Shown piece after piece: positions 10,951 through 63,785 of a DNA stretch of 64,000 bases; the first letter of the stretch is position 1, and every line of letters starts with the position of its first letter. The translations under genes and the position numbers were made by a program. The DNA is from a virus. The stretch lies in IMG/VR virus record IMGVR_UViG_3300045988_119396; one strand, given 5' to 3'. Below the pieces are notes generated by a model that saw only the letters and a program-made list of their open reading frames with translations, made no database searches and had not been told where the DNA came from.

Positions 10951-11517
10951 TTAGCCTTTAACATATTCCAAGAATGTTTCATGCTCACTTTTAGGTCTTG
11001 TTGCCTTTAATGCTTGTAACTTGCTATAATCATTCAATTCATCGTTACGATATAAAACAACAGAACGTTCAATGATAGCTTTCTTGATACGACTTGATAG
11101 CTGTTCTTTATATTCTTCTAAAGAGCTATCTAAGATAAAATCATCAAGTTCTTCAAGGTCAATGTCGTATTCTTCTTCCATTTCTTCATCTGAAAGCCCA
11201 AGAATAGACTTAAAATATTCTTCATAACTGCGGTTCACACGTAAGCTACGTGCAATATCAATAACTGAATACTCGTCAGAATTTACGTCCACAATGACTA
11301 ATGAAAAGTCTTCTAAGTATCTCTTTAATTGACGTAAATCTTCAAAATTTACAAATTCTTCATCACCATGTTTTTCTAAATTTAGTGTTAATACTTTATT
11401 TGGTGATTGATATTCAAACATTCCATCTGTGTTATTTGCCACAGTAACTTCTAAATCTGCTGGAATTTGTTTTCTTACTCTCTTTTTTCTTTCATGATTT
11501 CTAGCCAACTCACTCAC
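10951..11517 (-). CDS. hypothetical structural protein
   Basis: 188-aa ORF downstream of the major capsid gene. Confidence 0.35.
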   Translation of the reverse strand: MSELARNHERKKRVRKQIPADLEVTVANNTDGMFEYQSPNKVLTLNLEKHGDEEFVNFEDLRQLKRYLEDFSLVIVDVNSDEYSVIDIARSLRVNRSYEEYFKSILGLSDEEMEEEYDIDLEELDDFILDSSLEEYKEQLSSRIKKAIIERSVVLYRNDELNDYSKLQALKATRPKSEHETFLEYVKG

Positions 11518-11593
11518 TCCAATCTCAATAGTTGCTAAAATCTTTACACATGATAAAGGAGTCGAACCTTTACCATGTAATCGCTTACAATAA

Positions 11594-12640
11594 TTAGCCT
11601 AATTTAGCCATACCGTAAACACGCATTTGCAATACTCCAACACCGAGTTTTCTACGTGTTGCAAATCCTAATTGCATAGATGTGTTAGATGTTTGGTCTG
11701 CTTCGTACACTTCTGTTGTACCTTCTGTAACAACACCAACAATCTTTTCGCCAGCTGGTAATACAATAACTTTGTCATCACCAATAGCAAATTCATCTGA
11801 GTTTGTCTTAAATGCTTGTGGAATTTCAATTAATTTCAAGCCACGAACCATACCTAAGTAACCTTTTTGGTTAAGTTCGTTCTTCATATCGCCACTGTAT
11901 AATTGAACATTGTCTAAAGCAGCAATCTTAGCTAATGCGGAAGCTGTACCATAAACAGCAACTTCTTTACCGCCAGACTTAATCTTGATACGTTGTGCTA
12001 ACTTAACAAGGCCATCAAGTGTTAGACTACCTTCAATTTTATCTGGTGTTCCTAACAATGTGTATGCTTGTTCTAAGCCTTCAGCAATACGTTCTTCAAT
12101 AAATGCTACAAAACCGTCAGCAACACGATTTACAAGGTCTGTCCAGTCAATATCACCAGCCATGAATTGTTCAAATTCAGCATATACAGCTGTTCCATAC
12201 CATTCTGTGTCGATTTTGAATGAACGACCTGTTACTGTTTGTCTACGCATATCGTTAGCGCCAGCAGCAATACGTCCTACACGTACGGCACGTGGGTCAT
12301 TGTATGTGAACAATGGTTTGTCGCCAAAGTTAGCTGTACGATAATCAGCAAATTGGTCTAATTGGTTCTTTAAACGTTCTGGGATAACAACATCTAATGC
12401 TGTTTGTAGAATACTAAATACTTCCCATTTGTTCTTTCCCCAAGATACTGAATTAAATACACCACCCATAGCGTCTTTAACAGCGTTACGTAATGCATCA
12501 GAAGCAGAAACGTTGTTAAATTCAAGGCTACGATTATGATAAGCGTCTTTAGCTAATTTTGCTAAATCATTCATTTGAACTGCCATACTTTTTAATCTCT
12601 CCCTTTCATTAACCGAATGCAATAACGAATACTTCGCCAT
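11594..12640 (-). CDS. major capsid protein (HK97-fold candidate)
   Basis: 348 aa, follows the protease-scaffold gene. Glycine/alanine-rich C-terminal half (GVVTEGTTEVYEADQ..LGFATRRKLGVGVLQMRVYGMAKLG) typical of HK97-like coat proteins. Confidence 0.55.
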   Translation of the reverse strand: MAKYSLLHSVNERERLKSMAVQMNDLAKLAKDAYHNRSLEFNNVSASDALRNAVKDAMGGVFNSVSWGKNKWEVFSILQTALDVVIPERLKNQLDQFADYRTANFGDKPLFTYNDPRAVRVGRIAAGANDMRRQTVTGRSFKIDTEWYGTAVYAEFEQFMAGDIDWTDLVNRVADGFVAFIEERIAEGLEQAYTLLGTPDKIEGSLTLDGLVKLAQRIKIKSGGKEVAVYGTASALAKIAALDNVQLYSGDMKNELNQKGYLGMVRGLKLIEIPQAFKTNSDEFAIGDDKVIVLPAGEKIVGVVTEGTTEVYEADQTSNTSMQLGFATRRKLGVGVLQMRVYGMAKLG

Positions 12641-27669: not shown

Positions 27670-27933
27670 ATGAAAATTTGTTATAATTGTAAAAAAGAAG
27701 TACCCGAAGATAGTATCTATTGCATGTATTGTGCAGCACCACTTAATGGTGAAGAAGTAACTAAGCAAATAAAAGAACAATTAGATGGTTTTAAGCGTGT
27801 GACAGGCGATAAGACAGATAATGAAGCTGTAAAACATCTATTGAGTTACTGGTACGATAACTTAAACGATGAAAAGAAGGAAAAATACGACAAAATAGAA
27901 CGTGAAGACAAGCAACAAGAGCTATCTAACTAA
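27670..27933 (+). CDS. Zn-ribbon protein (CxxC-x10-CxxC), paralog family with LLSYW motif
   Basis: MKICYNCKKEVPEDSIYCMYCAAP. C-terminal VKHLLSYWYDNLN. ATG at 27670 after SD GGTGAG. Confidence 0.45.
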   Translation: MKICYNCKKEVPEDSIYCMYCAAPLNGEEVTKQIKEQLDGFKRVTGDKTDNEAVKHLLSYWYDNLNDEKKEKYDKIEREDKQQELSN

Positions 27934-28088
27934 TCTAAATAGTGTTATAATAAAAGACGATACAGAGGCTTTATCCTTTTGCCCATCTGTATCACCAATA
28001 TGATATTTTTCCGATTAACCCTTTTGCCTATAGGGGTGTCTTAAGATACTAGCAACATTCCATATAACTTGTTGCTAAATTGAGTTTT

Positions 28089-28124
28089 AGACCGTTGTAT
28101 CCTTCTGCAACGGTCTTTTTATTT
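28089..28124 (+). terminator. rho-independent terminator ending the par operon
   Basis: AGACCGTTG-tatccttctg-CAACGGTCT followed by TTTTTATTT. Confidence 0.6.
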
Positions 28125-28379
28125 AGGTAGACTTCTGTGATTTTTGTCATTTATATTTACATATTTTTATGATAGAATACTAGAAATAGAAAGCCTTTGA
28201 GTATTGAATACACAATGAATGGGAGTCTTGTGTGCGATATAGGGTTATTTTAGACCATTACATTAACTTGTAGTGGTCTTTTCTTTTGTCTTAATTAAGG
28301 ATGTATTATCATAGTCGTATCATAAACTACCCTATAATAAGCTACATTATAGATTTACATACGGTGTTTTAACGTATGA

Positions 28380-29330
28380 TAAGGTAGTATTTGTCATGTA
28401 GGTCTTAAAAACCATACAAATAAGGTTTATTTAGCATTTGTAGGTATTTTATTTTTAGAATTTCGTTTTGAAAACTCAATGTAAGCGTGATAATAAGGGG
28501 CTAATATGATAACTTCTGGAATGAGTGATTTTAGGGGTAAAAACATAAGGTTTACAACCTTGTAAAGCTAGATGTAGATGTGTCGCTTATTAAGGTTCAT
28601 TTTAGAGCTACGAATATAAAATCTGAATAAAAACTAGGTAATAAGTTAATAAAGATAGGATAAATTTATAGTAAAGTTTGGAGAAAAGAAAATTGGGGTG
28701 AGTGAAAAATTCACTGTTTACATGGGCATATTAAGGTAGGTTTTTTGGAAGAATGAAAGAACAATCGAAACTTTTCATTTTTGCACCAGTAGAATGGCTG
28801 CAAGTATATTGTTACAAGGGTGTGACTCACAGGAACTTTTGTCAATGATTTATAGACAAAACTTGATGTGTCTTAGTGCGTATTTTGAGTGGTTTTTGAG
28901 CATGTTTGGAGAGAGCTAAAAGGGGCAAAATCTGTGAAAATGCAAAATATGTGATAAAAGCAGTGGTGATTTGCAGCTGGGAATTGTGAAGATTTTGTGA
29001 AGATTATAATTGGAGTGATTGTGATAGGTGGAATTAATTTTGTGGAATTATAAGATTATTGTTATGTAGTGAGTTAGATTTAGTGTATGGGTATTATAGG
29101 AGTGTAGGGGAGAGAATGAGTGAATTGGAGCTTATTATGGTCGTTAGAGTAGGATATGGCAGTAGGGGAGGGTGAAATAGCGTAGAATAGGGCATAGCAA
29201 GGGGTATTTTGGGTGATATTAGGGTGGAATGGGGAGTGAAATTGGGGTGTGTGGGGTGAGCTACTGTTTCTGAAAGGTTTTGAAAAATTTAAAAGATTTG
29301 AGACAATGTAGGGGGCTTCCAGATGCAAAA
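28380..29330. other. C-depleted (G/T/A-only) noncoding segment with G-tract runs
   Basis: Almost no C on the plus strand, e.g. 28900-29290. Many G3-4 runs (TAGGGGAGGGTG, TGGGGAGTG, GGGGTGTGTGGGGTGAG). No credible ORF on either strand. Confidence 0.6.
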
Positions 29331-29399
29331 TAATTCTAGTTATTTTTTGAAATCTAAAAAAGTATATATTTTGTACCTTGAAAAAGATTAAAAATGAAA

Positions 29400-30300
29400 G
29401 CGTTTACAGAATTAATTCAAGTATTAATATAAATTAATATAAGAAGACGCGTATATAAGTAAAATTTATGGTATCTATAAGAATAACTTATATTTTGCAC
29501 TATTAATAAAATTTGATACACAAAACTTTTATTATACCACACTCCACACAATAACACAATACTATATTTAAAATAATATGTTTCACGTGAAACACGTCTA
29601 GTTTATAACAATTCTAAACCAATAAAAACTCTAACTTACTAAAATTTACTACTTTAAAATTATTCTAAACTAATACAAATTCTAACATTTAAAACATTCT
29701 AAACTGATAAAGATTATAAACTAATAATAAATACAGGTTAATATCATTTACAACATTATAAGAATTATCAATTTATAACTATTCTAAACTACTACTTTAC
29801 TTACTATTAGTTAGTAATAACTCTATATCTTTGATATAGTACATCTACTTGAGGCGGCTGCTACTAATTTACTTACAATAAGTAAGTAACATATACTTAT
29901 ATAACTAGATGTAACACCCTTAACACGTACATAATACTAAAATGTATATTATAGTAGAAACAACACAATAAGCACTAATAACGATAAGCACACGCTTATA
30001 TATGTATCTACACCTATACGCACGTTACTGTATACACTCAAGCCCTTGATGTATCAACGTTTATCACGCTTACATTATATATAATATACATACATAGTGC
30101 ATACATATACATATACTAGATACATCAAACACTAACTATATTTAACACGTTATAAAGCCTATTGCATCAACGATTATCGCACTTATCTAATAATAATCTA
30201 TAATAAAATACTTATAAGAATAAAATAAGCATAAATAAAAGCTCTTATAATTCTACCAATACAAAACACTAATGTGTCAAGTTTTCATAATGTTTTCATA
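29400..30300. other. G-depleted (A/C/T-only) noncoding segment with iteron-like repeats
   Basis: Plus strand nearly devoid of G. Four copies of ATTCTAAAC (29611, 29662, 29696, 29781). Palindrome CACGTGAAACACGTG (~29584). (CATA)n-like low complexity around 30060-30120. Confidence 0.6.
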
Positions 30301-30371
30301 AAGTAAATGAAAGCGGATAAAGCCTTATGAAATAAGGCTTTATAGCCAGTTGAATAATATCATCTTATAAT

Positions 30372-30731
30372 TTACTTACTGGAAGTCAACCCTTGTAAAA
30401 ACGCTTTAAGTGCTATTATATCAGTGTTTGAAAGGGCTTTACCATTGTATGTAACACCAGTTTTCAAAATGGTATCCAATTCATTATTATTGATAAGATT
30501 TTTATTATCTTTATTATCAGATAGACCGTATAAATAATCTAAACTTACATTATACAAGTTAGCTAATTTTAAAGCGTTTGTGCTGGTTAATATGTTTTTA
30601 CCGTGTTCAATATCTGAATAAGTACCGTGACTTTTTAAGTCAATTTTTTTAGCTATATCTTGCATTGTGTAACCTTTTTCAATTCTTAACTCTTTCAAAC
30701 GGGAAGCAGCCGTAAATCTATTGTACAACAT
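30372..30731 (-). CDS. XRE-family HTH transcriptional repressor (CI-like)
   Basis: ASRLKELRIEKGYTMQDIAKKIDLKSHGTYSDIEHGKNI matches the HTH_XRE pattern. Transcribed divergently from the tandem promoter-operator array. Confidence 0.7.
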   Translation of the reverse strand: MLYNRFTAASRLKELRIEKGYTMQDIAKKIDLKSHGTYSDIEHGKNILTSTNALKLANLYNVSLDYLYGLSDNKDNKNLINNNELDTILKTGVTYNGKALSNTDIIALKAFLQGLTSSK

Positions 30732-30883
30732 ATAAATTATTTTAACCTTTCATTTTTTAATATAATAGTAGAAACTATTTAATTGTTACTTTTTATTATA
30801 CCTTACAAACGTTATTATATCAAGGTTTTAACGGGTTTTTATAGTAGATGTTAGCAAACTTTTCAAAAAACATCAAAAAAGTG

Positions 30884-31348
30884 TTGACAAGCTACTAACA
30901 AGGGTTTATAGTGTTTATTGTCGATAAAGTCGACAACACAAAAACATATTTTTTAATTGTAAGCTTCCAATTTTTAAAAATTTTGAAAAAAGGAATTGAC
31001 AAGAAAAAACATATATGTTTTAATAACGTTGTCAATAAGGTCGACAAGTTGGAAGCCGTGAATTGACGGTATATAATATCAATTCATACTTAATTTAATA
31101 AATGCTTCCAGTAAAGGAAGCTACAAAATAAAGATTTTAAAAATCTTTAAAAAGTAGTTGACAAAATGGAAGTTATAAATTATATTAAGAGCGTCGATTA
31201 AATCGACAACTTATATAATAATTTTAGGAAGCTTCCACTTCCTAACCTTGAAAAATCAAGGGTAAAAAGATTTTTAAAATCTTTTTAAAAAGCTCTTGAC
31301 AAAATTCAAGGAAGCAATTATTATATAAATTGTCGATAAGGTCGACAA
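30884..31348 (+). promoter_or_regulatory. array of four tandem promoter + palindromic operator + hairpin modules (rightward)
   Basis: TTGACA at 30884, 30996, 31158 and 31296. Each is followed after 17 nt by a -10 (TATAGT, TTTAAT, TATATT, TTATAT). Each is then followed by the operator TTGTCGA-N5-TCGACAA at 30918-30936, 31029-31047, 31191-31209 and 31330-31348. GGAAGC/GCTTCC hairpins and A/T palindromes (AAAGATTTTTAAAATCTTT) lie between units. Confidence 0.6.
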
Positions 31349-31349
31349 A

Positions 31350-31800
31350 AAAATAAAGCCTCTGAGTTGGGGCTTCCGATAATACCAACTCAATAAGTCA
31401 AAATTTATTTTGTTTGGAAGTACGCCCCGTACGTGGGGCGGGGGTATAAATAGCGTACAAAACACCACTCTTCAGGTGGGGGTGGTGGGTAAAATAAACT
31501 ACTATCTAACCCCTGGGTAGCCCTGGGCGTTCTTTGGACAACTGAATAAAATTTCAAGGGTAGCTCCTTGAGAGTGGAAGCCGTCTTCACTATAAATAAT
31601 ACGGAAGAGCCACGGCAAGCATAGCCGTGACACTCGGCTCAAAGCGGGTTCAATAGGTGGAGTGCATCCTCCCTCGCTTTACTAGCAATGGTAAAGCGGT
31701 ACTATTGTACGTCAATAAAATGGAGAACCTGGCGGGGCTTGCTTAATAACCCGATACGGTAGGGGTTAGCCAGAACGGGCATGAAAACATTAATTCTACC
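31350..31800 (+). ncRNA. GC-rich, densely structured noncoding RNA candidate (~450 nt)
   Basis: No ORF. Sharply higher GC than the flanking sequence. At least ten local helices, including GAGTTGG/CCAACTC, GCCCC-GTACGT-GGGGC, CACCAC/GTGGTG, CTCAAGG/CCTTGAG, GAGCC..CACGGC/GCCGTG..GGCTC, AAAGCGGG/CCTCGCTTT and CTGGC/GCCAG. Downstream of the four tandem promoters and upstream of the first early gene. Confidence 0.45.
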
Positions 31801-31952
31801 AGACTATATATAAATATAGTTTAATGTTTGACAAAACTTGAGTAATCATACAACCTCTAATTTAACAAAATCAATAAATTGATTTTGTTATTAAGCACTA
31901 TGCAAGTAGTGTTTAATATAAAAATCAATAAAATTTAGAGGAGGTACTTATT

Positions 31953-32195
31953 ATGAGTACTAGATTACAAGAAACAACATACGTAAGAAGTGGTAAAGGT
32001 AAACGCTGGAGTTTGAAAGAAACAGAATACATTGATGATTACAGTATCAAGCTATTTGAAAAGCGTATCATTGGTACGGTAGGTTTCTTCAGAAATTTAG
32101 GTGGTACTGAAATTGTATCACGTACTGAATACATGGTGACGTCAATCAGTCCAGACAGTACCAAGAAAGTTGTAAGAAAATTATTATTGTATTAA
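31953..32195 (+). CDS. hypothetical early protein (first gene of early operon)
   Basis: 80 aa, SD AGAGGAGG 8 nt upstream of the ATG. Confidence 0.5.
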   Translation: MSTRLQETTYVRSGKGKRWSLKETEYIDDYSIKLFEKRIIGTVGFFRNLGGTEIVSRTEYMVTSISPDSTKKVVRKLLLY

Positions 32196-32213
32196 AAGTC
32201 TAGAGAAGAACTG

Positions 32214-32268
32214 AGGGTAGGTTAGTACATAGAAAAAATTCTATCAAGGTGCAAATCCTTGCTATCCT
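32214..32268 (+). ncRNA. miniature tRNA-like element (acceptor stem + T-arm, no anticodon loop)
   Basis: AGGGTAG...CAAGG-TGCAAAT-CCTTG-CTATCCT. 7-bp acceptor pairing with one G-U. T-arm with a 7-nt loop close to the TTCRANY consensus. Internal TAGAA-aaaa-TTCTA hairpin. 55 nt. Confidence 0.35.
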
Positions 32269-32319
32269 ATATCACTAGATTTTTCTAGTGAAAAAATAAA
32301 CATTGTGGAGGTAGTCAAA

Positions 32320-32565
32320 ATGATAGACTATATGGAATTATCACTAGATGAAAGAAGAAACTTATACAATGAATGGTGTAAAAATAAAAATAGATTGCTA
32401 TTCATGGATGAGTTCGCATACCGTGATTTTAAAAAAGAATTAGACAACGACAACGATGTGTGGGTTATATTTTGTGACGGTTTAGTGCTTGAAATAGTGC
32501 CAATGGATAAACTAGATGAAACACTAGAGGATTTAGTGGAATGTGGATATGAATTAGAGGACTAA
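32320..32565 (+). CDS. hypothetical acidic early protein
   Basis: ATG at 32320 after SD GTGGAGG. 81 aa. Confidence 0.5.
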   Translation: MIDYMELSLDERRNLYNEWCKNKNRLLFMDEFAYRDFKKELDNDNDVWVIFCDGLVLEIVPMDKLDETLEDLVECGYELED

Positions 32566-32591
32566 AAATAAATTTTAGGAGGTACATTACT

Positions 32592-32858
32592 ATGTACGAT
32601 AACAAAATAATTTTAGAGGCTACAATTTCATATACAGTTGATAGTGACCATCCAGACTGGCAATACATGAATGAAAAACAACAAAACGGTATAAATAAAT
32701 TTAGTGATGATTACTATTTTGACAAGAATTACTATTCAATCAGTGATAAAGATTACATGATTGAACATGCTAAACATGATTTACTGTTGGTTGCTGGTGG
32801 TGGATACAATTACGACCACGTACACAATGCAAAATTTAAATTCAAGTTTTATGATTAA
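32592..32858 (+). CDS. hypothetical early protein
   Basis: 88 aa, SD AGGAGG upstream. Confidence 0.5.
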   Translation: MYDNKIILEATISYTVDSDHPDWQYMNEKQQNGINKFSDDYYFDKNYYSISDKDYMIEHAKHDLLLVAGGGYNYDHVHNAKFKFKFYD

Positions 32859-32918
32859 AAGAATTTTTAGGTAGTAATTTCAGTCAAGAAAAGAATTTAA
32901 AGAATAGAGGTAATTAAA

Positions 32919-33302
32919 ATGAATGCACAAAAAGAAAAATTATATCTATCAAAGCCAGTATATGAAGTAAGAGTACGTTATAAAGGCGGTGGATGGTTTA
33001 GTGGTGATGAATTTAAAAGTGAAAGTTTAGATATAGCAAAAAAGACAGGGCTTGAAAATTATACACGTTGTGGAGCTTGTAACGGTGGATACCTTAAAAT
33101 AGAAAAAATTCAATATATCAACGGTTTAAAATCACTACCAATAAAAGAATTATTAGAATTTGTTGGTAGTGAAAAAGAATTTTTACTCAACAATAAAGTA
33201 ACTATTGAGGAGTATAAAGAAAAATTAGTAGATGACAATAGATTTAGCTACAGGGTAGCACCATCTTTTATAGAAATTGAAAAGAAACATACAAAAAAAT
33301 AA
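32919..33302 (+). CDS. hypothetical early protein
   Basis: 127 aa, SD AGAGGTAATTAAAATG. Confidence 0.5.
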   Translation: MNAQKEKLYLSKPVYEVRVRYKGGGWFSGDEFKSESLDIAKKTGLENYTRCGACNGGYLKIEKIQYINGLKSLPIKELLEFVGSEKEFLLNNKVTIEEYKEKLVDDNRFSYRVAPSFIEIEKKHTKK

Positions 33303-33321
33303 ATTTAGTGAGGTAAATATA

Positions 33322-33594
33322 ATGAATAAAAAGAATTTAGCAAAAAAATATTTAATGGATAACGTTGTAATTGACCTTGATTATATTGATGAAATTAAAT
33401 CACAACCTAGAGAACAAATTATATACATGGGTGGGGTCAAACACTGGTATATCAAAACAAAAACTAATTATGAAATTTTACAGAATGCAATCAACTATGC
33501 AAACTATAAAAATAAAATTAGTGATAGAAACTGGCGAACTGTAATTGCATTGTGGCAAGAAGTAGTTTATAGCAAATTAGAAAAGTTAGTGTAA
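33322..33594 (+). CDS. hypothetical early protein
   Basis: ATG at 33322 after SD AGTGAGG. The ORF track's upstream start overlaps the previous gene. Confidence 0.45.
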   Translation: MNKKNLAKKYLMDNVVIDLDYIDEIKSQPREQIIYMGGVKHWYIKTKTNYEILQNAINYANYKNKISDRNWRTVIALWQEVVYSKLEKLV

Positions 33595-33621
33595 AAAAGA
33601 ATTTTTTAGGAGGACTTTATC

Positions 33622-33828
33622 ATGAAAAATAAAATTGAATATGTAGGGTTTACTTATGATATAGATAACATTGATGTTGAATTTATCGTTAATGGTATAA
33701 AAAAGAATTTATACATTAGTGGTAAAGGTGTAGAAGAAATTTTAGACTTTATGGATTATCAAGAAAACGAAGATGTAGATATGATATTAGACAGTTATTT
33801 TGAAACATATAAGCAAGAAATATTTTAA
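33622..33828 (+). CDS. hypothetical acidic early protein
   Basis: 68 aa, SD AGGAGG. Confidence 0.5.
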   Translation: MKNKIEYVGFTYDIDNIDVEFIVNGIKKNLYISGKGVEEILDFMDYQENEDVDMILDSYFETYKQEIF

Positions 33829-33860
33829 CAAAAAAGAATTAATCAAGGGTGGTAATTGGG

Positions 33861-34073
33861 ATGAAAGTAACTTTAAAAAGAAATAATAGCTATGTAGCAA
33901 ACTATGAAGATATGTATTTTAGAGATTGCAAAGTGTTGGTATATAACACTTTATACGACAATATAGACAGTATGGAGGGTGCGAACGAAGAATTAAATTC
34001 AATTAGAAGTTGGGTTGACTTGGTAGACTTTGCAAACTCTCACGGTGGCAAAATGTTTATTGATGAAGATTAA
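33861..34073 (+). CDS. hypothetical early protein
   Basis: ATG at 33861 after GGGTGGTAATTGGG. 70 aa. Confidence 0.45.
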   Translation: MKVTLKRNNSYVANYEDMYFRDCKVLVYNTLYDNIDSMEGANEELNSIRSWVDLVDFANSHGGKMFIDED

Positions 34074-34107
34074 GCTAGAAAAGAATTTTTAAAGGTGGTA
34101 ATTAATC

Positions 34108-34494
34108 ATGAAAAAAATTAACGGTTTAAAAGTAGCTAATGTAATAACAATAATAGGTGTAGTTTGCTTAGGTGTATCTAATCATGAATACATTAAACAA
34201 AATAAGCAACTGAAAAAAGAAAATTTACACCAAGAAAAAGTAATTAAAAAGCAACGTCAAGAATTGACTTATAACGTCAAGAATTTAGACTTGCAAAGTG
34301 GCAGCATACTCAAAACAAGTAAATTTACGCTTGAATACTATGATGATAATAAAAAAGATTTTCACATGGTTATCTATCCTAACGATAAGAATTTAAGAGT
34401 AGTTAGTGAACAAGGTCAAGGTGCAAAGGGTGTAGAAATTGAAAGTGTACCTAGTGAATTTAAAGGCACTACTACAATAATTCAAGAAAAATAA
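34108..34494 (+). CDS. membrane-anchored early protein (N-terminal TM helix, coiled coil)
   Basis: VANVITIIGVVCLGV TM segment. SD AAAGGTGGTAATTAATCATG. Confidence 0.5.
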   Translation: MKKINGLKVANVITIIGVVCLGVSNHEYIKQNKQLKKENLHQEKVIKKQRQELTYNVKNLDLQSGSILKTSKFTLEYYDDNKKDFHMVIYPNDKNLRVVSEQGQGAKGVEIESVPSEFKGTTTIIQEK

Positions 34495-34605
34495 ATTTTA
34501 GTGTTGACAAGGAAAAATAAAGAAGTTATAATTCAGTTGTCAAGTTAAGAGTACAGAGAATAACTTGATAGCAAAAAATAAAATAATTTGAAAGAGGTAA
34601 TTATT

Positions 34606-35250
34606 ATGACAAACGAAGAAATTTTTGAAATTATGGGTGATGTGGTTAATGAATGGGGTTTATATATCGAAGATATAAATATATATACCAATGACCTAGA
34701 GGCTACTATTGTAGGTCAATATGATAGTAGAATTTACTACACTTACAACGATATAGATGAATTAGAAGGTAAGTCAGAAAAAGAAATTTTTGCAAGTTTA
34801 GAAAGTCAACTTATGGAAACACTAGAAGATTTTGATGCCGAAGAAGAGTTTGAAAACCTAGACATGAATGACGTAAGCATTTTAGAAAACATGAAACTTG
34901 ACGAAAAAGATTTTAAAGAAACCGTGTGGATGTATGAACAGAAACAGAAAGGTAAAGAAGTGTCAAGTTTTGAAATAGCTTTGACACATGAATTGCAAAA
35001 ACTAGGTCAATTAATGAATGATGAAGTTTATCCTGGTATGGTAGCTAGTTACGCTGTGGATATTTCAAGAGTTAGATGGTCAAATGAAATTTATGAGTAC
35101 ATGAAAGAAAAAAATATTGATATGACAAATGTAGATTATTATGACGTTAATTTCTTTAGCATTGTAAAAAGAGATAGTTTAATAACTGAGTTGTGGACTC
35201 AAGGCAAGAAAGATGAGGCAGTAAAACAATTTCAAAAACACGTATTTTAA
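34606..35250 (+). CDS. hypothetical highly acidic early protein
   Basis: ATG at 34606 after AAAGAGGTAATTATT. Asp/Glu-rich. Confidence 0.45.
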   Translation: MTNEEIFEIMGDVVNEWGLYIEDINIYTNDLEATIVGQYDSRIYYTYNDIDELEGKSEKEIFASLESQLMETLEDFDAEEEFENLDMNDVSILENMKLDEKDFKETVWMYEQKQKGKEVSSFEIALTHELQKLGQLMNDEVYPGMVASYAVDISRVRWSNEIYEYMKEKNIDMTNVDYYDVNFFSIVKRDSLITELWTQGKKDEAVKQFQKHVF

Positions 35251-35287
35251 AGAAATATATATATTTAGAGTCTAGAGAAGAAATAAA

Positions 35288-35344
35288 AAAGGTATCTAGT
35301 CGGTAGAAAGTTTACAACTTGTAAGGTTCGAATCCTTACTACCT
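35288..35344 (+). ncRNA. miniature tRNA-like element (acceptor stem, short D-like and stem-tetraloop arms, canonical T-arm)
   Basis: AAGGTAT-CTAGTCGGTAGA-AAGTTTACAACTTG-TAAGGTTCGAATCCTTA-CTACCTT. T-loop GGTTCGAATCC. D-loop-like AGTCGGTAG. 57 nt. Confidence 0.35.
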
Positions 35345-35395
35345 TATATATCCTAATTAGGATAGAAAAATAATTTTATATAGGAGGTATCTATC

Positions 35396-36022
35396 ATGAA
35401 AAAGTTTATAGATACAAACAAAAAAGAATTTTTAGTAAGTGAGAATTTATATCACGTTGACAACTACATTGATGAGTTGAAAAGCAATGGTATTCATGTA
35501 GTAAGTAATGTAGATATTCTTGATTATACAGAGGCTTTAGAAGATATTACTGAGGCTTTTCTTGATATAGTTGATGATTTAGAAGAAGGAAATAATTATT
35601 TCAGACTACCAACTCAAGAAGAATTAATACAAAAGTGGGTAGATAGTGGGTGGAAAGATTTAAACGAGCCATTCGACAAAGAGTTAGCAACTAGCTTTTA
35701 TTATAGTGATTGCATACGTGACGCTTTGAGTGAAGAGCCTTGCGAGTTTCTAAGTTGGTTAGATAGTGAAAGTAGATTTTTCACTTATGAAACAGTAAGT
35801 GAAGGTATGGATTTCTATGACTTAATAGAATATCATCCACTAACCAATGTAGAAAGCGATATGTTGCTAACTTATGATGATGAATTAAGAAAAAATTTAT
35901 TTGATGATTGGTTTTTTGTAGAAGATAAAGAAGGCAACCAAGAAGAATTTAGCTTAGAAAGTTTTCAATCATTAAACATGTATATGTTAAAAAACTACAA
36001 TGCGTTAGAAGTAACTAAGTAA
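35396..36022 (+). CDS. hypothetical highly acidic early protein
   Basis: 208 aa, SD AGGAGG, pervasive Asp/Glu. Confidence 0.5.
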   Translation: MKKFIDTNKKEFLVSENLYHVDNYIDELKSNGIHVVSNVDILDYTEALEDITEAFLDIVDDLEEGNNYFRLPTQEELIQKWVDSGWKDLNEPFDKELATSFYYSDCIRDALSEEPCEFLSWLDSESRFFTYETVSEGMDFYDLIEYHPLTNVESDMLLTYDDELRKNLFDDWFFVEDKEGNQEEFSLESFQSLNMYMLKNYNALEVTK

Positions 36023-36084
36023 AGAAAATTTTCTAAGAATTTCAGTAACAAAAAATAATTCAAATTAAAAGGGTGGTAATCAAT

Positions 36085-36282
36085 ATGTACGGACAAGAAT
36101 TTTACGGTGGTTTATTTATGATGAGTTTTGTTGCCTTGGTAATAATTTTGATGGGTAGCTATCATGCTGTTTGTTGGTTGTATAAAAGAAAAAGATTTAT
36201 TTTCAAGCTAATGTTATTCATACCATATACAATTTTGACTTTATTGTTGGTTGGTATCAAAGCATTAAACAATAGAATATAA
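36085..36282 (+). CDS. small membrane protein (2 TM)
   Basis: ATG at 36085 after AAAGGGTGGTAATCAAT. Hydrophobic. Confidence 0.45.
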   Translation: MYGQEFYGGLFMMSFVALVIILMGSYHAVCWLYKRKRFIFKLMLFIPYTILTLLLVGIKALNNRI

Positions 36283-36311
36283 AAAAATAATTATTAAAGG
36301 TGGTAATCAAA

Positions 36312-37139
36312 ATGACAAAAGAATTAGTAGAAACAGTAGTAGTAAAAGTAAATGCAAAAGATTTAGTTAGAAGTTATAAAGAAATTTTAGTACATGTTCA
36401 AAAGAAAGACTTTAGACCAATACTAGCAACAGTTAATCATGTAGTAGAAAACAATAAATTAACTTTAGTTGCTACTGATACACATTCACTAGGCAAGTTC
36501 ACTTTAGATTGTGAAAGTGACAGTGATGTTGAGTTTGCAGTACCTAGAAAAGTAATTCAAGCATTATCTAAGCTAAAAAATAAAGAATTAGTTAATGAAG
36601 AAATTATCCTTGAATTTTCTGATGACAAAATCAATTACATTGTGAATGGTAAGGAATTTATTAGCTCAATGACAGAAAGTAATTATCCAAGTGTTGAAAG
36701 AATTTTACCAGTAGTAAACGAAGATAGAAATATTACGTTCAATATTCGTGAATTAAAAGAATTTATCAAACATATTAAAGAAACTGGCTACCACAGAAAA
36801 GAGTGGAGCAATAAAACAATTCAATCAAATATTAAATTCATCAAAGGTCAATTCGTATTTAGTTATGAATACGAAGATGAAGAAGGTAAGGTATTCTACA
36901 AAAAAGAAAATATTAATTGCAATGTAACTAAGGGGTTCACTGATGATTATGATATTAATCTCAATATCTATGAATTAGAAAGACATGTAAATAAATTCTT
37001 AGTTGGTAACAAAACAATTACATTAGCTTTTGTTGAAAAAGAATTTATGAATAGTCAAAACGTAAGACCAATTCAAGTAACATACAACGGTATGAATAAT
37101 TACATTGGTGTGTTAGCACCAATGCGAGCATTTAAATAG
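36312..37139 (+). CDS. DnaN-like sliding clamp (beta-clamp homolog, 2-3 domain)
   Basis: LATVNHVVENNKLTLVATDTHSLGKF and MTESNYPSVERILPV match the DnaN signatures (l.atDg.rla ; EGNYPDY..viP). Confidence 0.55.
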   Translation: MTKELVETVVVKVNAKDLVRSYKEILVHVQKKDFRPILATVNHVVENNKLTLVATDTHSLGKFTLDCESDSDVEFAVPRKVIQALSKLKNKELVNEEIILEFSDDKINYIVNGKEFISSMTESNYPSVERILPVVNEDRNITFNIRELKEFIKHIKETGYHRKEWSNKTIQSNIKFIKGQFVFSYEYEDEEGKVFYKKENINCNVTKGFTDDYDINLNIYELERHVNKFLVGNKTITLAFVEKEFMNSQNVRPIQVTYNGMNNYIGVLAPMRAFK

Positions 37140-37211
37140 TAGAAAAATAAAAGAAAAATTAGTTAGAAAATCAATAACAAAAATAATTTAAAAATTAAAG
37201 GGTGGTTAATT

Positions 37212-37601
37212 ATGATGGAAAATAACTTATTTGTAGCACCAATGTTAGGCTGTGGCACTTTAGACTTAAATATCTTTTTTGAAAAATTAGACAATTACGA
37301 AGATACAGTGTTTTTGCATGATGAAGAATTTTCATATCAAAAATTAATAGAAGAAACAAAATTTAGGGCTGGTGATGACTGGAGTTTTAATGACCTAATG
37401 GAAACTTTAGACTACATGGCTGTTGATAGTGCATTAGGTCAAGTAACAAAATCAGAAAAATTTAATGAGTTTGATGACCTAGTACGTGAAAGTATAAACG
37501 GTTGGTATAACTACGCAGATAATAATTTATATTTTGACAATGAAGAAGAATTAGAAAAATTTGATGAATGGAAAGAATTTTCAGAATTATTAGATTTATA
37601 A
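37212..37601 (+). CDS. hypothetical acidic early protein
   Basis: 129 aa, SD AAAGGGTGGTTAATT. Confidence 0.45.
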   Translation: MMENNLFVAPMLGCGTLDLNIFFEKLDNYEDTVFLHDEEFSYQKLIEETKFRAGDDWSFNDLMETLDYMAVDSALGQVTKSEKFNEFDDLVRESINGWYNYADNNLYFDNEEELEKFDEWKEFSELLDL

Positions 37602-37614
37602 AGGGTGGTTAATT

Positions 37615-37854
37615 ATGAAAGTAAGAAATTTTAAAGAATTAAATAATGAATATCCAATGGTTGAGGAATTGGTAGTGTATAAACCAACTTTTAGGAAACG
37701 TGTTGATATTGTTGTAAATCAAGAAATAACTTTAGCTTTAGCAAGTAATATTGTTGCTTATGTAATACCAAGAAGTCTAAACAATAGAGTGAGAAAAGTT
37801 TGGGATATGGATTATATAGACAATCAGACAATCATTACAGTTGATTATGAATAA
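37615..37854 (+). CDS. hypothetical early protein
   Basis: 79 aa, SD AAGGGTGGTTAATT. Confidence 0.45.
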   Translation: MKVRNFKELNNEYPMVEELVVYKPTFRKRVDIVVNQEITLALASNIVAYVIPRSLNNRVRKVWDMDYIDNQTIITVDYE

Positions 37855-37883
37855 AGATTAAGAATTAAAAGGTGGTAATTGAA

Positions 37884-38123
37884 ATGAAAGAAAGAAAATT
37901 TAATGTGTACGTGAAAAATAGATTAGTGGGTCAAATAACATATGACAACTGGGTTTACTTTGATGATTATCGTACCAATGAATATGAAATTGATCTAGAT
38001 ATAAAAGATTTAGATGAGGCAATGGAAACTTTAATAGACTACTACATTAAAGATATACCTTGCAATTATGAAGATGTTGGTTTTGTTGAGTTAGTTAATA
38101 AAGAAAATTTAGTTGAAATTTAG
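37884..38123 (+). CDS. hypothetical early protein
   Basis: ATG at 37884 after AAAGGTGGTAATTGAA. Confidence 0.45.
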   Translation: MKERKFNVYVKNRLVGQITYDNWVYFDDYRTNEYEIDLDIKDLDEAMETLIDYYIKDIPCNYEDVGFVELVNKENLVEI

Positions 38124-38171
38124 TGTTCGGATAAAATAACGATTTTATAAACGTTATAAACGTTGTTATGT

Positions 38172-38236
38172 AGGGTAATTGGTATAATACAATAAAATAA
38201 TTTATTGCATTTTAAGGTTCGATTCCTTTTTATCCT
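38172..38236 (+). ncRNA. miniature tRNA-like element
   Basis: AGGGTAA ... AAGGTTCGATTCCTT-T-TTATCCT. Acceptor pairing with one G-U. T-loop GGTTCGATTCC. ~65 nt. Confidence 0.3.
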
Positions 38237-38287
38237 ATCAGTTTGAAACACAATTCAAACTAGAAAAATAATTTTAGGAGTGATTAT

Positions 38288-38923: not shown

Positions 38924-39202
38924 ATGGAAAACAGAGAAGAATTAGCAACAAAATTATTAAACGTATCACTAAAAGCAATCAACGACAAAGATTTAAACCT
39001 AGAAGAAAAGAGTGTTGTATACATTCTGGTAAACAAAATCTTAACTATTGGATATGAAAATGCAATGGGTGAACTACTACATGAAGAAAAATTTTATGAA
39101 GGCTTCGGCTTTACATACAACTATCTAACGTTAGTAACTAAGTTTTTGATGAGTAAATACTTTAATGAAATTCGTGAAATTTTAGATGGTGGTGAAAAAT
39201 AA
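38924..39202 (+). CDS. hypothetical early protein
   Basis: 92 aa, SD AAAGGGTG. Confidence 0.45.
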   Translation: MENREELATKLLNVSLKAINDKDLNLEEKSVVYILVNKILTIGYENAMGELLHEEKFYEGFGFTYNYLTLVTKFLMSKYFNEIREILDGGEK

Positions 39203-39894
39203 TGGAAAAAGAAAAAATTTTGGTAGAAGTCAAACAATTTGAACGTGAGCTACAAATGCAAAACAGGGTGCTTGCAGCTTTAAATACAGTAGATGATGTT
39301 AAGTTAGTTGTTATTGAAAATGAATTATTAGATATGTTCAAAAAGAAATTAAACGTAAAATTAAGGGCTTGGGGTGCAAAAGAAGGTTTGGCAGACAACT
39401 ACATCAATACTGAATGGAAAGATAGACTTTTGGTAATGTCGCTAGACCAGAAAAAAATAAAAGACAGATTAGGTATTGGCAAGAAGAAACGTTTTGACTT
39501 TGACGCTTATAGTTTGGACGAAGTGATGATGATTGTTAAAAAAGAAATTATCCGTCAAGGTATCGAAGATAATCCATCACAAAGTCTGTATTACAAGAAT
39601 TTGAAAGTAGGTTCAGCACCAACTCCACCAGCAATTCAACGTAAATACGGTATGAATTGGAATGATGTACTGGATTACATTGGAATTGAACCAACACCAT
39701 TAAAAACATATGAAGATACAGAAGAAATATTACGTGAATTGAAAGCAGAAATTGAAAGATTGAATATGAAATATCCCTTTAGAAAAAATGAATATGAAGA
39801 AAAAAGAGATAAAGAAAACAGTCCTTCATCAACAACAGCAATAGTTCGTACTGGTAAGGGGTGGAGAGAAATTATTAATGAAATTATGGACTAG
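39202..39894 (+). CDS. hypothetical protein, shares a ~50-aa domain with 41044..41790
   Basis: VKKEIIRQGIEDNPSQ...GSAPTPPAIQRKYGMNWNDVLDYIGI parallels VRNEIIRLGIQDNPKV...GKAPSPSFIFSKSKMTWIEFIEEIGF. Confidence 0.45.
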   Translation: MEKEKILVEVKQFERELQMQNRVLAALNTVDDVKLVVIENELLDMFKKKLNVKLRAWGAKEGLADNYINTEWKDRLLVMSLDQKKIKDRLGIGKKKRFDFDAYSLDEVMMIVKKEIIRQGIEDNPSQSLYYKNLKVGSAPTPPAIQRKYGMNWNDVLDYIGIEPTPLKTYEDTEEILRELKAEIERLNMKYPFRKNEYEEKRDKENSPSSTTAIVRTGKGWREIINEIMD

Positions 39895-61199: not shown

Positions 61200-61258
61200 T
61201 TGACTTTTATTTTCTATGTGGTATCATAATATATGTAGTTAAGAGTTAAGAGAATAAA
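61200..61258 (+). promoter_or_regulatory. promoter (TTGACT...) + leader motif variant GTTAAGAGTTAAGAGAATAAA (copy 3)
   Basis: Motif at 61238-61258. Left flank of the tRNA-like/TnpB island. Confidence 0.5.
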
Positions 61259-61346: not shown

Positions 61347-61424
61347 ATCGGATAGCTTAATGGCAGAGCGTACGAGTATGATAACGATACTTGTAAGGTT
61401 TGATGTTCAATTCATCAATCCGAT
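61347..61424 (+). ncRNA. tRNA-like cloverleaf (78 nt) with non-canonical extended anticodon arm
   Basis: Acceptor ATCGGAT/ATCCGAT (7 bp). D-arm GCT-taatggcag-AGC. 9-bp stem TACGAGTAT/ATACTTGTA with loop GATAACG. T-arm TGATG-TTCAATT-CATCA. No encoded CCA. Confidence 0.35.
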
Positions 61425-61970
61425 ATTTGTCACAGTGATTATTTGACAATAATGTTTATTTTGTACTCATGATGAGTACCTCCTTTTATTTAAACTTATT
61501 TTTCTGAATTATGTAGTACGTATACCTAATCACTGTGGCACACCTCCAAGTTAGATTGGTAGGTGGGTAAGATAACGGTATTGCCCATCTACAAAAGAGT
61601 TGGCACTTCTCCTACATAAAATTAGAATTAATGTTTCATTCCAGTCAGCTCTTTTGTAGGTGAACAAAACTTAGTTTGCCTAAACAATTTTCGCAAGTCT
61701 GAAAGGATTTGTACTTTCCAAATTGATGGTGTTCTATGGTTAGTATTTCTCTAGTCTATTTTGTTAATTATTTTAATACTAATTTTAATATCATCTCTTT
61801 AACACTTTTTATTTTTATATTATTTTGTTTTTATCTGAATGTCAGCCCATTAGGGTTGATATATCAGCGAGTAGACGGTTGACTTTTTGATATATTTTTT
61901 ACGACCTCCGATTTTATGCTTGTTTTTTAAGCTACTCGTTGATATATCCATCTTAGTCGGAGGTGTAAGC

Positions 61971-62311: not shown

Positions 62312-63481
62312 GTGAGTAAGATGTTAAAAGGTATTAAATTACGTATATACCCAAATAAGAGACAACGTGAACAGTTGGATATTATGTTTGGTAATAGTCG
62401 TTTTATTTGGAATAATATGTTAGCTACGATGAACGAGCGTTACAAGAATAACAAAGATTTACCTATGTTAACCGAGTATAAATTACATGTTCTACTAAAA
62501 CCTTTGAAAGTTGAATATCCATTCTTGAAAGAGAGTGATAGCACTGCTTTACAAGTAGATTGTCAAAATCTGTATCGAGCGTGGAAGAACTTCTTTAAAT
62601 CTGGTTTTGGTAAGCCTAGATTCAAGTCTAGGAAATTCTACAAGCAATCTTATACAGGTAAGTCGGCACCTAATGTTCATGTAGTAGCTAAAAGATATAT
62701 GAAACTACCTAAGCTAGGCTATATCAAAACTAGCAAAACATTTCAACTCACCGATTGCAAGATTAAACGTTATACGTTAAGTCATGGCACGACTGGTCGT
62801 TATTATTTATCTTTACAGGTAGAATGTGAAAATCAAGCATTGTTACCTAAGACAAATAAATCAGTTGGGTTAGATTTAGGTGTAGCAGATTTAGCTATTT
62901 CTTCTGATGGAATTAAATATGATACATTCCATGTGGGAGATTTAGAACATAAAGCTAACTTGTGGCAACGTAAGTTTTCTAAGCGTAGACATCAAGCTAA
63001 GGTTTGTATCGAAAGTGATAAATACTCAAAAGTATTAGTGCCTAGAGATTTTGATGATTTTAAAAATCTACAAAAGGCTCGAAAGCGCAAAGCGAGATTG
63101 CAAGCTAAGATAGCTAACAAACGTAAAGATTACTTGCATAAATTAACCACTACGTTAGTAAAGCAATACGATACTATCGTTATTGAAGATTTAAAGGCTA
63201 AGAATATGATGAAAAATCATAAACTAGCAAAAGCAATAGCTAACGGTTCATGGTATTTATTCCGTTCTATGTTGGAATATAAGTGTAATTGGTATGGGAA
63301 GCAACTAATAGTAGTTAGTCCTAAATACACTTCACAAGTCTGTTCTAACTGTGGTGTAAATACAGGCAAGAAATCGTTAGATGTTCGTGAGTGGACTTGT
63401 GATAATTGTGGTACACATCACGATAGAGATATTAACGCTGCTAGAAATATCTTGGCTAAAGGATTGAAAGAAGTAGCTTAA
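62312..63481 (+). CDS. tnpB: IS200/IS605-family TnpB (OrfB) RNA-guided nuclease; no TnpA
   Basis: Ruv[18 protein letters not shown]. Ruv[13 protein letters not shown]. Zinc finger CSNCG..CDNCG. Ruv[15 protein letters not shown]. Confidence 0.8.
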
Positions 63482-63764: not shown

Positions 63765-63785
63765 GTTAAGAGTTTAGAGAATAAA
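63765..63785 (+). repeat. leader motif GTTAAGAGTTTAGAGAATAAA (copy 4), right flank of TnpB island
   Basis: Exact match to copies 1 and 2. No obvious -35 immediately upstream. Confidence 0.5.

Follow-up and report, generated by a model that had tools for sequence, protein, structure and literature searches.

Miniature tRNA-like elements at gene junctions of an early operon in a Ligilactobacillus phage-plasmid: candidate signals for RNase P and RNase Z

It is already known that tRNA-like folds act as RNA processing signals in organelles and in eukaryotic long non-coding RNAs. In animal mitochondrial tRNA punctuation, and at the mascRNA and MEN-beta ends of MALAT1 and NEAT1, cuts by RNase P and RNase Z separate or finish the flanking RNAs and release a small tRNA-like RNA. 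Related signals in plant mitochondria, the t-elements, were reportedly described by Hanic-Joyce in 1990. They are proposed to direct cuts by RNase P and RNase Z, and for cox1, nad6, and ccmC such cuts have been shown to form the mRNA ends; the T-arm motif of these elements has been defined as GGTTCRANYCC (Forner et al. 2007, PMC1920247). Here we describe three elements, E1, E2, and E3, from the early operon carried by a viral DNA (IMG/VR record IMGVR_UViG_3300045988_119396; the whole stretch analyzed, 64,000 nucleotides long, is called the window). They may represent bacterial counterparts of the t-elements, that is, tRNA-like processing signals in early mRNA cut by RNase P and RNase Z, an interpretation to which the present analysis gives about an even chance. 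Like t-elements, they have a non-canonical, non-decoding tRNA-like fold with an acceptor and a GGTTCRANYCC-type T-arm, located in an mRNA precursor beside a coding region. In contrast, t-elements belong to an organelle and E1-E3 to a bacterial phage-plasmid, the two have no sequence relationship, and processing is here a prediction. The E1-E3 family also differs from t-elements by a constant downstream hairpin, a fixed 5' untranslated region (5'UTR) of ~50 nt and, for E1 and E2, an upstream leader motif.

All three elements (56-66 nt) are intergenic and in sense orientation within the operon. Their common plan comprises a 7-position acceptor, an unpaired discriminator, and a T-arm that abuts the 3' acceptor strand as in a tRNA, with one or two short hairpins, closed by loops of 3-4 nt, at the places of the D and anticodon arms. 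An earlier, sequence-only reading of this DNA had located them to within 1-2 nt and had rightly noted short hairpins where the anticodon loop is missing. E1 (32214..32269, + strand) has acceptor strands at 32214-32220 and 32262-32268 (AGGGTAG/CTATCCT, 7 bp including one G-U) and a discriminator A at 32269. Its order is AGGGTAG / GTTAGTAC / ATAGAA-AAAA-TTCTAT / CAAGG-TGCAAAT-CCTTG / CTATCCT / A, with an unpaired D-like stretch at 32221-32228, a hairpin at 32229-32244, and the T-arm at 32245-32261. E1 is without a real D stem, the window copy having lost 3 nt of that stem relative to its homologues, and its D-like loop GTTAG occurs alongside a T-loop, TGCAAAT, that has G55; its T-arm motif, GGTGCAAATCC, is one base off the t-element consensus. 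E2 (35289..35346, + strand) has acceptor strands at 35289-35295 and 35339-35345 and a discriminator A at 35346. The acceptor, AAGGTA(T)/(C)TACCTT, comprises 6 bp and a T.C mismatch at pair 7, where base 7, instead of forming an acceptor pair, closes a 4-bp D-like hairpin, TCTA-GTCGG-TAGA (35295-35307, loop GTCGG). The order of E2 is AAGGTAT / CTA-GTCGG-TAG / A / AAGTT-TAC-AACTT / G / TAAGG-TTCGAAT-CCTTA / CTACCTT / A, in which the second hairpin is at 35308-35320 and the T-arm, with the T-loop TTCGAAT, is at 35322-35338.

E3 (38172..38237, + strand) has acceptor strands at 38172-38178 and 38230-38236 and a discriminator A at 38237, and its order is AGGGTAA / TTGGTATAATA / CAATAAA-ATAA-TTTATTG / CATTT / TAAGG-TTCGATT-CCTTT / TTATCCT / A. 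The D-like region TTGGTATAATA (38179-38189) contains TTGG and has almost no stem; it is followed by a hairpin (38190-38207) and by the T-arm (38213-38229, T-loop TTCGATT), whose stem, (T)AAGG-TTCGATT-CCTT(T), has 4 bp and a U.U at the first pair. The t-element T-arm motif is matched by both E2 (GGTTCGAATCC) and E3 (GGTTCGATTCC). Thus, a 7-bp acceptor and a perfect T-arm, which had been attributed to each element, do not occur in all three: the acceptor is as described in E1 and E3 and the T-arm in E2, whereas E2 has the mismatched seventh acceptor pair, E1 has G55 in its T-loop rather than the 'perfect' GGTTCGAATCC, and E3 has the U.U pair. The minimum-free-energy folds of E1 and E2 are the expected structures. 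With regard to aminoacylation identity, G3-U70 is absent, and both A1-U72 and A73 have been conserved. Inside its D-like region, at 38180-38188, E3 also harbors a perfect extended -10 sequence, TGGTATAAT, which is identical in all E3 homologues.

At default settings, ARAGORN finds no tRNA gene in the window. With thresholds lowered to 90%, it calls E3, as a doubtful 'tRNA-Ile(aat)', together with two other aberrant tRNA-likes, at 11546-11625 (- strand) and 61347-61425 (+ strand), and at 80% E2 appears among 24 mostly spurious calls; E1 is called at neither of the relaxed thresholds tried. No Rfam model matches E1-E3 at its gathering score. The best match of E1 and E2 is SpF41_sRNA (RF02435), with 28.6 bits (E=0.27) and 19.6 bits (E=0.33, in a 111-nt search), respectively, against a gathering score of 52, and that of E3 is tRNA (RF00005), with 20 bits against 29. 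E1 and E2 have no Rfam tRNA match at permissive thresholds, and the Rfam tmRNA, YrlA, and mascRNA models have no match between 31500 and 39000 even at E values up to 10. The traits of a tRNA that the elements do have are the acceptor, the unpaired discriminator, and a 5-bp T-stem with T54, C56, A58, and G53-C61, with the exceptions of E2 pair 7 and E3 T-stem pair 1. They were rejected as tRNA genes on account of their sub-threshold scores and of their 3-4-nt loops, in the place of which a tRNA has a 7-nt anticodon loop.

Among bacterial RNAs, SpF41_sRNA, which is present in strain-specific regions of streptococci, resembles the elements in its layout: a T-arm and an internal hairpin lie inside an acceptor-like stem, and a second hairpin comes ~3 nt later. 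However, SpF41 is a small RNA (sRNA) in its own right, and its second hairpin serves, together with a U tract, as an intrinsic terminator, whereas here the hairpin precedes an A-rich tract and the element lies within an operon; with bit scores far under 52 and a following hairpin devoid of a U tract, E1 and E2 were rejected as members of that family. The tRNA-like domains of tmRNA and YrlA similarly mimic an acceptor and a T-arm without an anticodon arm, but E1-E3 have neither G3-U70 nor an mRNA-like or Ro60-binding module, and they are embedded in mRNA rather than forming a stand-alone gene. Co-transcribed tRNA genes of bacteria and phages would share their maturation enzymes with the elements, some relatives of which lie in or beside real tRNA clusters; E1-E3, in contrast, cannot decode because of their 3-4-nt loops. 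Mitochondrial punctuation and mascRNA are eukaryotic, and the mascRNA model, as said, does not match; in the bacterial host, RNase P is of the RNA-based type B and RNase Z is of the short form.

That E1-E3 form one RNA family was established by pattern and covariance searches. The pattern GGTNCRAWTCC, with no mismatch allowed, matches E1-E3 and a single other site in the window, on the minus strand (39682-39692) inside an open reading frame (ORF, 39202-39894). A descriptor combining the T-arm with the acceptor, in which the T-arm is directly followed by a strand pairing with 7 nt located 18-50 nt upstream, has 4 matches in the window, against a mean of 0.7 and a maximum of 4 in 200 shuffles. 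A first covariance model, built from six E1/E2-type sequences and containing no E3 type, scores E1 at 65.6 bits (E=5e-13) and E2 at 75.7 bits (E=2e-15), the latter falling to 17.9 bits on the reverse strand, and it also recovers E3 (35.7 bits, E=5e-6), with no other strong match on either strand of the 64 kb. A second model, made from 31 homologues, gives the same picture, E3 then scoring 46.3 bits.

The structure of the elements is kept by compensatory mutation. In 24 distinct homologous sequences, aligned by fitting to the model, which somewhat inflates pairing, 97.8% of the cells of 20 base pairs hold standard pairs, compared with 41-52% after a shift of the 3' partners by 1-3 columns; both sides have changed in 17 of the 20 pairs, and none of 500 shuffles reaches the observed values. 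Compensatory changes are found in all four helices. Thus, the anticodon-like hairpin of E2, AAGTT-TAC-AACTT in the window, is TTACA-TAA-TGTAA in the homologous contig L001 (IMGVR_UViG_2898099943_000001), with its shape kept, and the D-like hairpin changes from TCTA..TAGA to GCTA..TAGC between the same two sequences; the two E2 copies are only 73-77% identical, between flanks of 90-100% identity, yet every helix is kept. A further E2-type copy has a GATA..TATC D-like hairpin and an AAGT-GCAA-ACTT hairpin. In the second of two tandem copies in the relative L082, the T-stem is changed from TAAGG/CCTTA to CAAAG/CTTTG and acceptor pair 6 from A-U to G-C, and a G-C to A-U compensation is seen in the acceptor of E3 homologues. 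Many pairs are G-U, as fits folding of the sense strand. All 24 sequences have T54, C56, R57, A58, T60, and G53-C61, positions that the search pattern had fixed for part of the set.

These results bear first on the idea that the elements are merely tRNA genes decaying without a present function. The acceptor start AGGG and the D region of E1 do look derived from a tRNA, the replicon family has both genuine tRNAs and aberrant near-tRNAs, and the missing D-stem nucleotides of the window E1 would suit erosion. Nevertheless, compensatory substitutions in all helices largely refute decay, the elements are as conserved as the flanking genes or more so (97-100% identity, against ~90% and ~55-65%), and elements truncated in the same way are found again in unrelated phage contigs, which makes this explanation very improbable. 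The sequence-only reading had listed decayed tRNA genes among the possible origins and had argued that recurrence of one truncated architecture speaks against random decay; the covariation bears out the argument and disfavors the origin.

The surroundings of the elements are as regular as their fold. In 19 junctions from the window and three relatives, the element starts 11-48 nt past a stop codon, a T comes right after the discriminator in all cases and an encoded CCA in none, and the next start codon is 45-53 nt past the discriminator, mostly at 49-50 nt, including all three window copies, for which the earlier reading had correctly noted a Shine-Dalgarno (SD) sequence and a start codon just downstream. 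Every copy is followed by a hairpin that begins 2-3 nt past the discriminator. After E1, this hairpin (32272..32291, + strand; tCACTAGA-TTTT-TCTAGTGa, 2-3 nt past the discriminator) precedes an A-rich tract, the SD sequence GGAGG (32307-32311), and an ATG at 32320. After E2, the hairpin ATCCT-AATT-AGGAT (35350..35363, + strand; at 3 nt) is followed by GAAAAATAA, the SD sequence AGGAGG (35382-35387), and an ATG at 35396. After E3, the hairpin AGTTTGAA-ACACAA-TTCAAACT (38240..38261, + strand; at 2 nt) is followed by GAAAAATAA, the SD sequence AGGAG (38276-38280), and an ATG at 38288. The hairpin sequence varies from copy to copy (CACTAGA..., CTACCAT..., CACTGTAA..., CACTAAAAAT..., ATCCT..., AGTTTGAA..., CCACTT...), and its retention despite such differences indicates selection for the hairpin itself. 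As an intrinsic terminator the hairpin was rejected, for it is followed by GAAAAAATAA, an A-rich tract, instead of a U tract. Likewise, GAAAAATAA is not part of the module: the A-rich tract with AGGAGG is the usual ribosome-binding context of the operon and precedes most of its genes that have no element.

There is no strong terminator on the + strand between 31.5 and 40.9 kb, and, going upstream, the first strong promoters are met at 31296 and 34504, which indicates that the elements sit inside long transcription units. A promoter of their own was considered and rejected, no acceptable -35/-10 combination being found upstream of E1, E2, or their homologues. Within the operon, elements occupy only 3 of ~24 gene junctions. 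This distribution is what gene-specific tuning would give, and it could therefore be argued that the element acts in cis without being cut, either protecting the upstream cistron as a barrier to 3' exonucleases or serving the downstream one as a ribosome stand-by site or insulator, with no involvement of RNase P or RNase Z. The position fixed relative to stop and start codons and the stable hairpin always found alongside would also suit such a role. However, a generic barrier needs no tRNA-type T-loop, 7-bp acceptor, unpaired discriminator, or CCA-less U trailer; simple hairpins would suffice, and tRNA mimics are hard to hide from the RNase P and RNase Z of the cell. We thus regard an uncleaved cis-acting element as quite unlikely.

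RNase P, RNase Z, and the CCA-adding enzyme recognize in a tRNA the acceptor/T-arm stack, the T-loop, the discriminator, and the GG loop, and they do not need the anticodon arm. The elements retain the parts that these enzymes read, although the GG loop only often, and the part that they have lost is the anticodon arm. In the mRNA decay of Firmicutes, 5'-proximal hairpins block RNase J1, which provides a rationale for the constant hairpin and the constant leader of ~50 nt. The proposed sequence of events is as follows. Once transcribed, the element would form a coaxial acceptor/T-arm stack with a tRNA-type T-loop, and in most copies the GG-containing loop could form the elbow. Host RNase P would cut on the 5' side of base 1, and host RNase Z just past the unpaired discriminator, where U rather than CCA comes next, and these cuts would divide the operon transcript into separate mRNAs. 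The downstream mRNA would then begin 2-3 nt before the stable hairpin, which might shield its 5'-monophosphate from a 5' exonuclease of the RNase J1 type, and it would have a fixed 5'UTR of ~50 nt ending in a strong SD sequence; a mini-tRNA of ~57 nt would be released as a by-product.

The trailer can be compared with what is known of RNase Z in other bacteria. No tRNA gene of Streptococcus or Lactococcus encodes CCA, and RNase Z cuts there directly past the discriminator, which left a trailer starting with U (PMC8549757); the host here is one of the Lactobacillaceae. In addition, RNase Z is inhibited when C or CCA follows the discriminator (PMC7479834), and the pneumococcal sRNA F41 (Rfam SpF41) pulled down RNase Z (PMC7196914). 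The U trailer and the lack of CCA would thus fit the RNase Z substrate profile. Altogether, the anatomy of the elements, with this trailer, the hairpin, the fixed 5'UTR, and the existence of kin within tRNA clusters, favors a role as putative RNase P/RNase Z signals, one of the three possibilities listed by the sequence-only reading, over the other roles considered.

A number of points weigh against this interpretation. The elbow read by RNase P may be impaired in E1, which combines the lack of a D stem with G55, and E2 has its T.C mismatch at acceptor pair 7. Folding energies beat those of shuffled sequences only marginally (z = -2.3, -1.7, and -1.35 for E1, E2, and E3, respectively), stability alone being weak, so that the case rests on the family and covariation evidence; as for the latter, pairing is somewhat inflated by the model-fitted alignment, although the margin is still large and examples are visible by eye. 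Punctuation of the operon is partial, and the cuts would leave the upstream mRNA without a protective 3' structure. The U after the discriminator could simply come from AT-rich spacers and shared ancestry. Transcripts begun at the TGGTATAAT of E3, if it is active, could not form the tRNA-like fold. Finally, transcription through the element, both cleavages, and the stabilizing role of the hairpin are steps that we infer.

Release of a small RNA might also be the purpose rather than the by-product of excision, the mini-tRNAs then acting in trans as abundant, stable decoys or sponges for enzymes that read the acceptor and T-arm, be they defense toxins or host tRNA-maturation enzymes; decoys for tRNA-targeting toxins had been another possibility listed by the sequence-only reading. 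The portion of the tRNA that has been kept is the one read by acceptor-end enzymes, and several copies (3 here and 5 in the plasmid pMP1046B discussed below) are present in the earliest expressed operon, with a gene for a HigB-like toxin nearby. Moreover, the pneumococcal sRNA F41, which is similar, is stable, has infection phenotypes, and binds RNase Z and Cbf1. Against these considerations, no element has a promoter or terminator of its own, and the middle region is free to vary, so that, apart from generic tRNA features, nothing is conserved that could serve as a seed or a ligand surface. No tRNA-related or defense-related enzyme is encoded next to the elements, whether a tRNA-targeting defense or a counter-defense gene, and the flanking proteins have no informative PHROG or Pfam match. 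A decoy would also leave the fixed hairpin and the fixed distance to the start codon unexplained, and a trans-acting function is accordingly judged unlikely.

The flanking proteins lead to three IMG/VR contigs of ~127-129 kb, and an exact flanking protein is present on several metagenomic contigs. In PLSDB, a 7.1-kb query has 87.9% identity over 74% of its length with pMP1046B of Ligilactobacillus salivarius JCM1046, a plasmid with two tRNA genes that was described as a 'candidate chromid' (PMC4165912). The annotation of pMP1046B (NZ_CP007648.1) comprises ParA, RepA, a tape measure protein, a holin, XkdX, an antirepressor, DnaB, and PolIII-beta, as well as three tyrosine recombinases and several copies of TnpB, and this joint content of phage and plasmid genes indicates that it is a phage-plasmid. 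The window, which has genes for RecD2-like and DnaB-like helicases, an integrase, TnpB, ParA, a helix-turn-helix (HTH) repressor, Bro/ANT, and a HigB-like toxin, is of the same character and belongs to a relative of pMP1046B, also a Ligilactobacillus phage-plasmid. The covariance model finds five elements in pMP1046B, at 9331, 9677, 10127, 12681, and 15816, all on the + strand, where they occupy gaps annotated as intergenic within the same early operon; the rest of its 129 kb has none. In GenBank phages, a megablast search with a 6.5-kb region gave no match, and a distant search gave only a 73-nt promoter stretch of Javan247 (see below). Among species-representative genomes, the T-arm and acceptor pattern found 24 loci, none of them of this replicon family, and the exact E2 pattern matched only three close relatives in IMG/VR.

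Comparison of these relatives showed that the elements are conserved islands at cassette boundaries, where recombination breakpoints lie between variable gene cassettes. This follows from three observations. The gene upstream of E2 has 92.7% identity in pMP1046B and 48.7% in L082, and the gene downstream of it 53.8% and 100%, respectively. Sliding identity places breakpoints at the 5' edge of the leader motif and E2 (~35277) and just within the downstream gene (~35430), the breakpoint of L082 homology falling at the leader motif (35266..35282); between ~35277 and ~35430, the element, the hairpin, and the ribosome-binding site (RBS) show 97-100% identity, against ~90% and ~55-65% for the flanking genes. 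Lastly, the number of copies at the E1 site varies, the window having one, L082 a tandem pair, and pMP1046B three that are interleaved with single small ORFs, and the four ORFs that follow E1 have no homologue in three relatives.

It might be proposed from the same observations that the module functions at the DNA level, as a portable junction for the exchange of gene cassettes, either by homologous recombination between copies or by the action of a tyrosine recombinase on the T-arm, whose two strands form an inverted repeat around a 7-nt spacer, in the manner of tRNA-targeting integrases. The discordant identities on the two sides of E2, the breakpoints at its borders, the lack of homologues for the genes after E1, and the varying copy number at the E1 site all speak for such linkers, and both the window and pMP1046B encode tyrosine recombinases. 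A double-stranded site, however, needs neither compensation in four helices, nor sense-specific G-U pairs, nor invariant T-loop residues that match tRNA tertiary contacts, and every copy points in the direction of transcription, at a constant distance from the start codon. The breakpoints may also be a consequence of a conserved repeat rather than its function. A role as DNA linkers alone is thus improbable, but it may coexist with an RNA role, perhaps as a second aspect of the same module. A tRNA fragment left by an integrase (attL, attR, or attP) was rejected, both acceptor strands being present and covarying; such a fragment is not what multiple copies inside an operon on a circular plasmid would represent. 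As regards integron-type attC sites, cassette-like variation is seen at the elements and tyrosine recombinases are present; the sites are cloverleaves with a tRNA T-loop and not attC-type hairpins. The sequence-only reading had mentioned neither these cassette breakpoints nor the kinship with a Ligilactobacillus phage-plasmid, nor the following hairpin, the non-canonical T-loop of E1, and the pairing of E2 base 7.

Two of the elements are preceded by a leader-type motif, AAAAGTCTAGAGAAGAA (32194..32210, + strand), 3 nt upstream of E1, and TAGAGTCTAGAGAAGAA (35266..35282, + strand), 6 nt upstream of E2. That both have such AAGAGTCTAGAGAAGAA-like motifs agrees with the earlier report of a common TCTAGAGAAGAA sequence before two elements, which turns out to be part of a longer motif, AAGAGTnnAGAGAAnAA, or (GTT)AAGAGTyTAGAGAAkAA, with 11 matches in the window against 1.5 expected. 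It is also found 10-12 nt past the -10 box of five strong promoters (34504, 42277, ~45130, ~52800, and ~61200), in copies at 34547, 42319, 45178, 52848, and 61241. In large Lactobacillales phages and phage-plasmids, the leader motif, the mini-tRNA, the 5' hairpin, and the RBS together might constitute a portable 'expression junction', which would be both a DNA crossover for early accessory genes and an RNase P/RNase Z cut making each cassette its own mRNA, the mini-tRNAs possibly adding a decoy function; such a combination is conceivable, but doubtful as a whole.

Similar elements occur in other phage contigs. A degenerate T-arm and acceptor pattern found 51 stretches in IMG/VR, most of which are not tRNAs according to ARAGORN but are matched by the covariance model, and none of which reaches an Rfam gathering score except as tRNA. 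The 103-kb contig L053 (IMGVR_UViG_2786546475_000032) has five elements within 4 kb (3694-7655, - strand), each a few nt past a small co-oriented ORF and with ~38-46% GC over the elements; their design is a three-way junction made of the acceptor, one hairpin with a GG loop, and the T-arm, and this contig is an independent example of the same punctuation pattern. Several contigs of ~40 kb, apparently of temperate Lactobacillaceae phages (L035 at 5552-5879, L016 at 5794-6140, L009, L021, L049, and others), carry a 93-nt and a 54-nt element ~200 nt apart, the second of which shares its TGCAAAT loop with E1 and precedes a strong terminator, after which comes the next gene. Several elements are ~40 nt past a tRNA-Asn, and in Lactiplantibacillus phage Gut-P1 a matching stretch (78760-78862) lies unannotated within a tRNA cluster. 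A T follows the discriminator in 28 of 30 elements of other phage contigs, which are not all independent, and the ORFs that flank those 30 are mostly co-oriented with them.

In the searchable full-text literature, no description of such punctuation elements was found for phages or plasmids, and their association with a constant hairpin-leader and with cassette breakpoints appears to be new. Should the proposed processing be true, a phage-plasmid would split its long early transcript into separately stabilized messages using only the tRNA enzymes of its host, and dozens of unannotated T-arm-containing spacers in Lactobacillales phage contigs would be explained. The mini-tRNA, the hairpin, and the RBS would then also provide a part of ~110 nt for insulating the genes of synthetic operons in Gram-positive hosts. 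The link with breakpoints is also relevant to the shuffling of early accessory genes between phage-plasmids that are related, and an expression junction, if real, would be the equivalent of tRNA punctuation in a bacterial virus, with cassette exchange linked to it.

Other tRNA-like sequences were observed in these replicons. L001 has at 1767-1822, ~1.2 kb upstream of its E1 homologue, an additional GC-rich mini tRNA-like (AACCAC..., hairpin AACTC-AATA-GAGTT, T-arm CCACCG-TGCGAGT-CGGTGG), which is followed by TAC, a hairpin, and an SD sequence at 45 nt and has no counterpart in the window. Within the window, a 79-nt aberrant tRNA-like (61347-61425, + strand) has a perfect 7-bp acceptor, ATCGGAT/ATCCGAT, a T-arm, TGATG-TTCAATT-CATCA, and an anticodon stem that can be extended to 9 bp, with a 7-nt loop, GATAACG, devoid of U33. 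ARAGORN calls it 'tRNA-Leu(taa)' only at 90% thresholds, and it has its own sigma70-like promoter (~61200-61230) followed by the leader motif (61241-61257). Another one is located at 11546-11625 (- strand), between the ORFs 12640..11594 and 11517..10951, at the end of a structural gene. Its T-arm, AAAGG-TTCGACT-CCTTT, is stacked on ACATGGT/ATCATGT in a 12-bp minihelix preceded by TGTAA-GCGA-TTACA, and it is 95% conserved in pMP1046B, where ARAGORN gives a poor 'tRNA-Tyr(gta)'. pMP1046B also has genuine tRNA-Gln and tRNA-Ser around a TnpB gene.

As regards the leader motif, a copy at 63768-63784 lies ~290 nt past the stop codon of the TnpB ORF (62312-63481), at the place expected for a TnpB omega-RNA guide or for the flank of the right end of the transposon; the motif could thus reflect an insertion-site preference or an RNA-guided regulation of leaders. 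The promoter at 34504-34532 is a perfect consensus, TTGACA-17-TATAAT, and the 73 nt around it have 80% identity with an unannotated stretch of Streptococcus phage Javan247. Finally, the 4 kb at 27933-31953, located between partition/zinc-ribbon genes and the early operon, contain few ORFs and probably constitute a lysis/lysogeny or maintenance switch. They hold strong terminators at 28089-28116 and 28252-28279, an HTH repressor gene (30372-30731, - strand), and near-consensus promoters at 30884, 31158, and 31296 that point toward the early operon.

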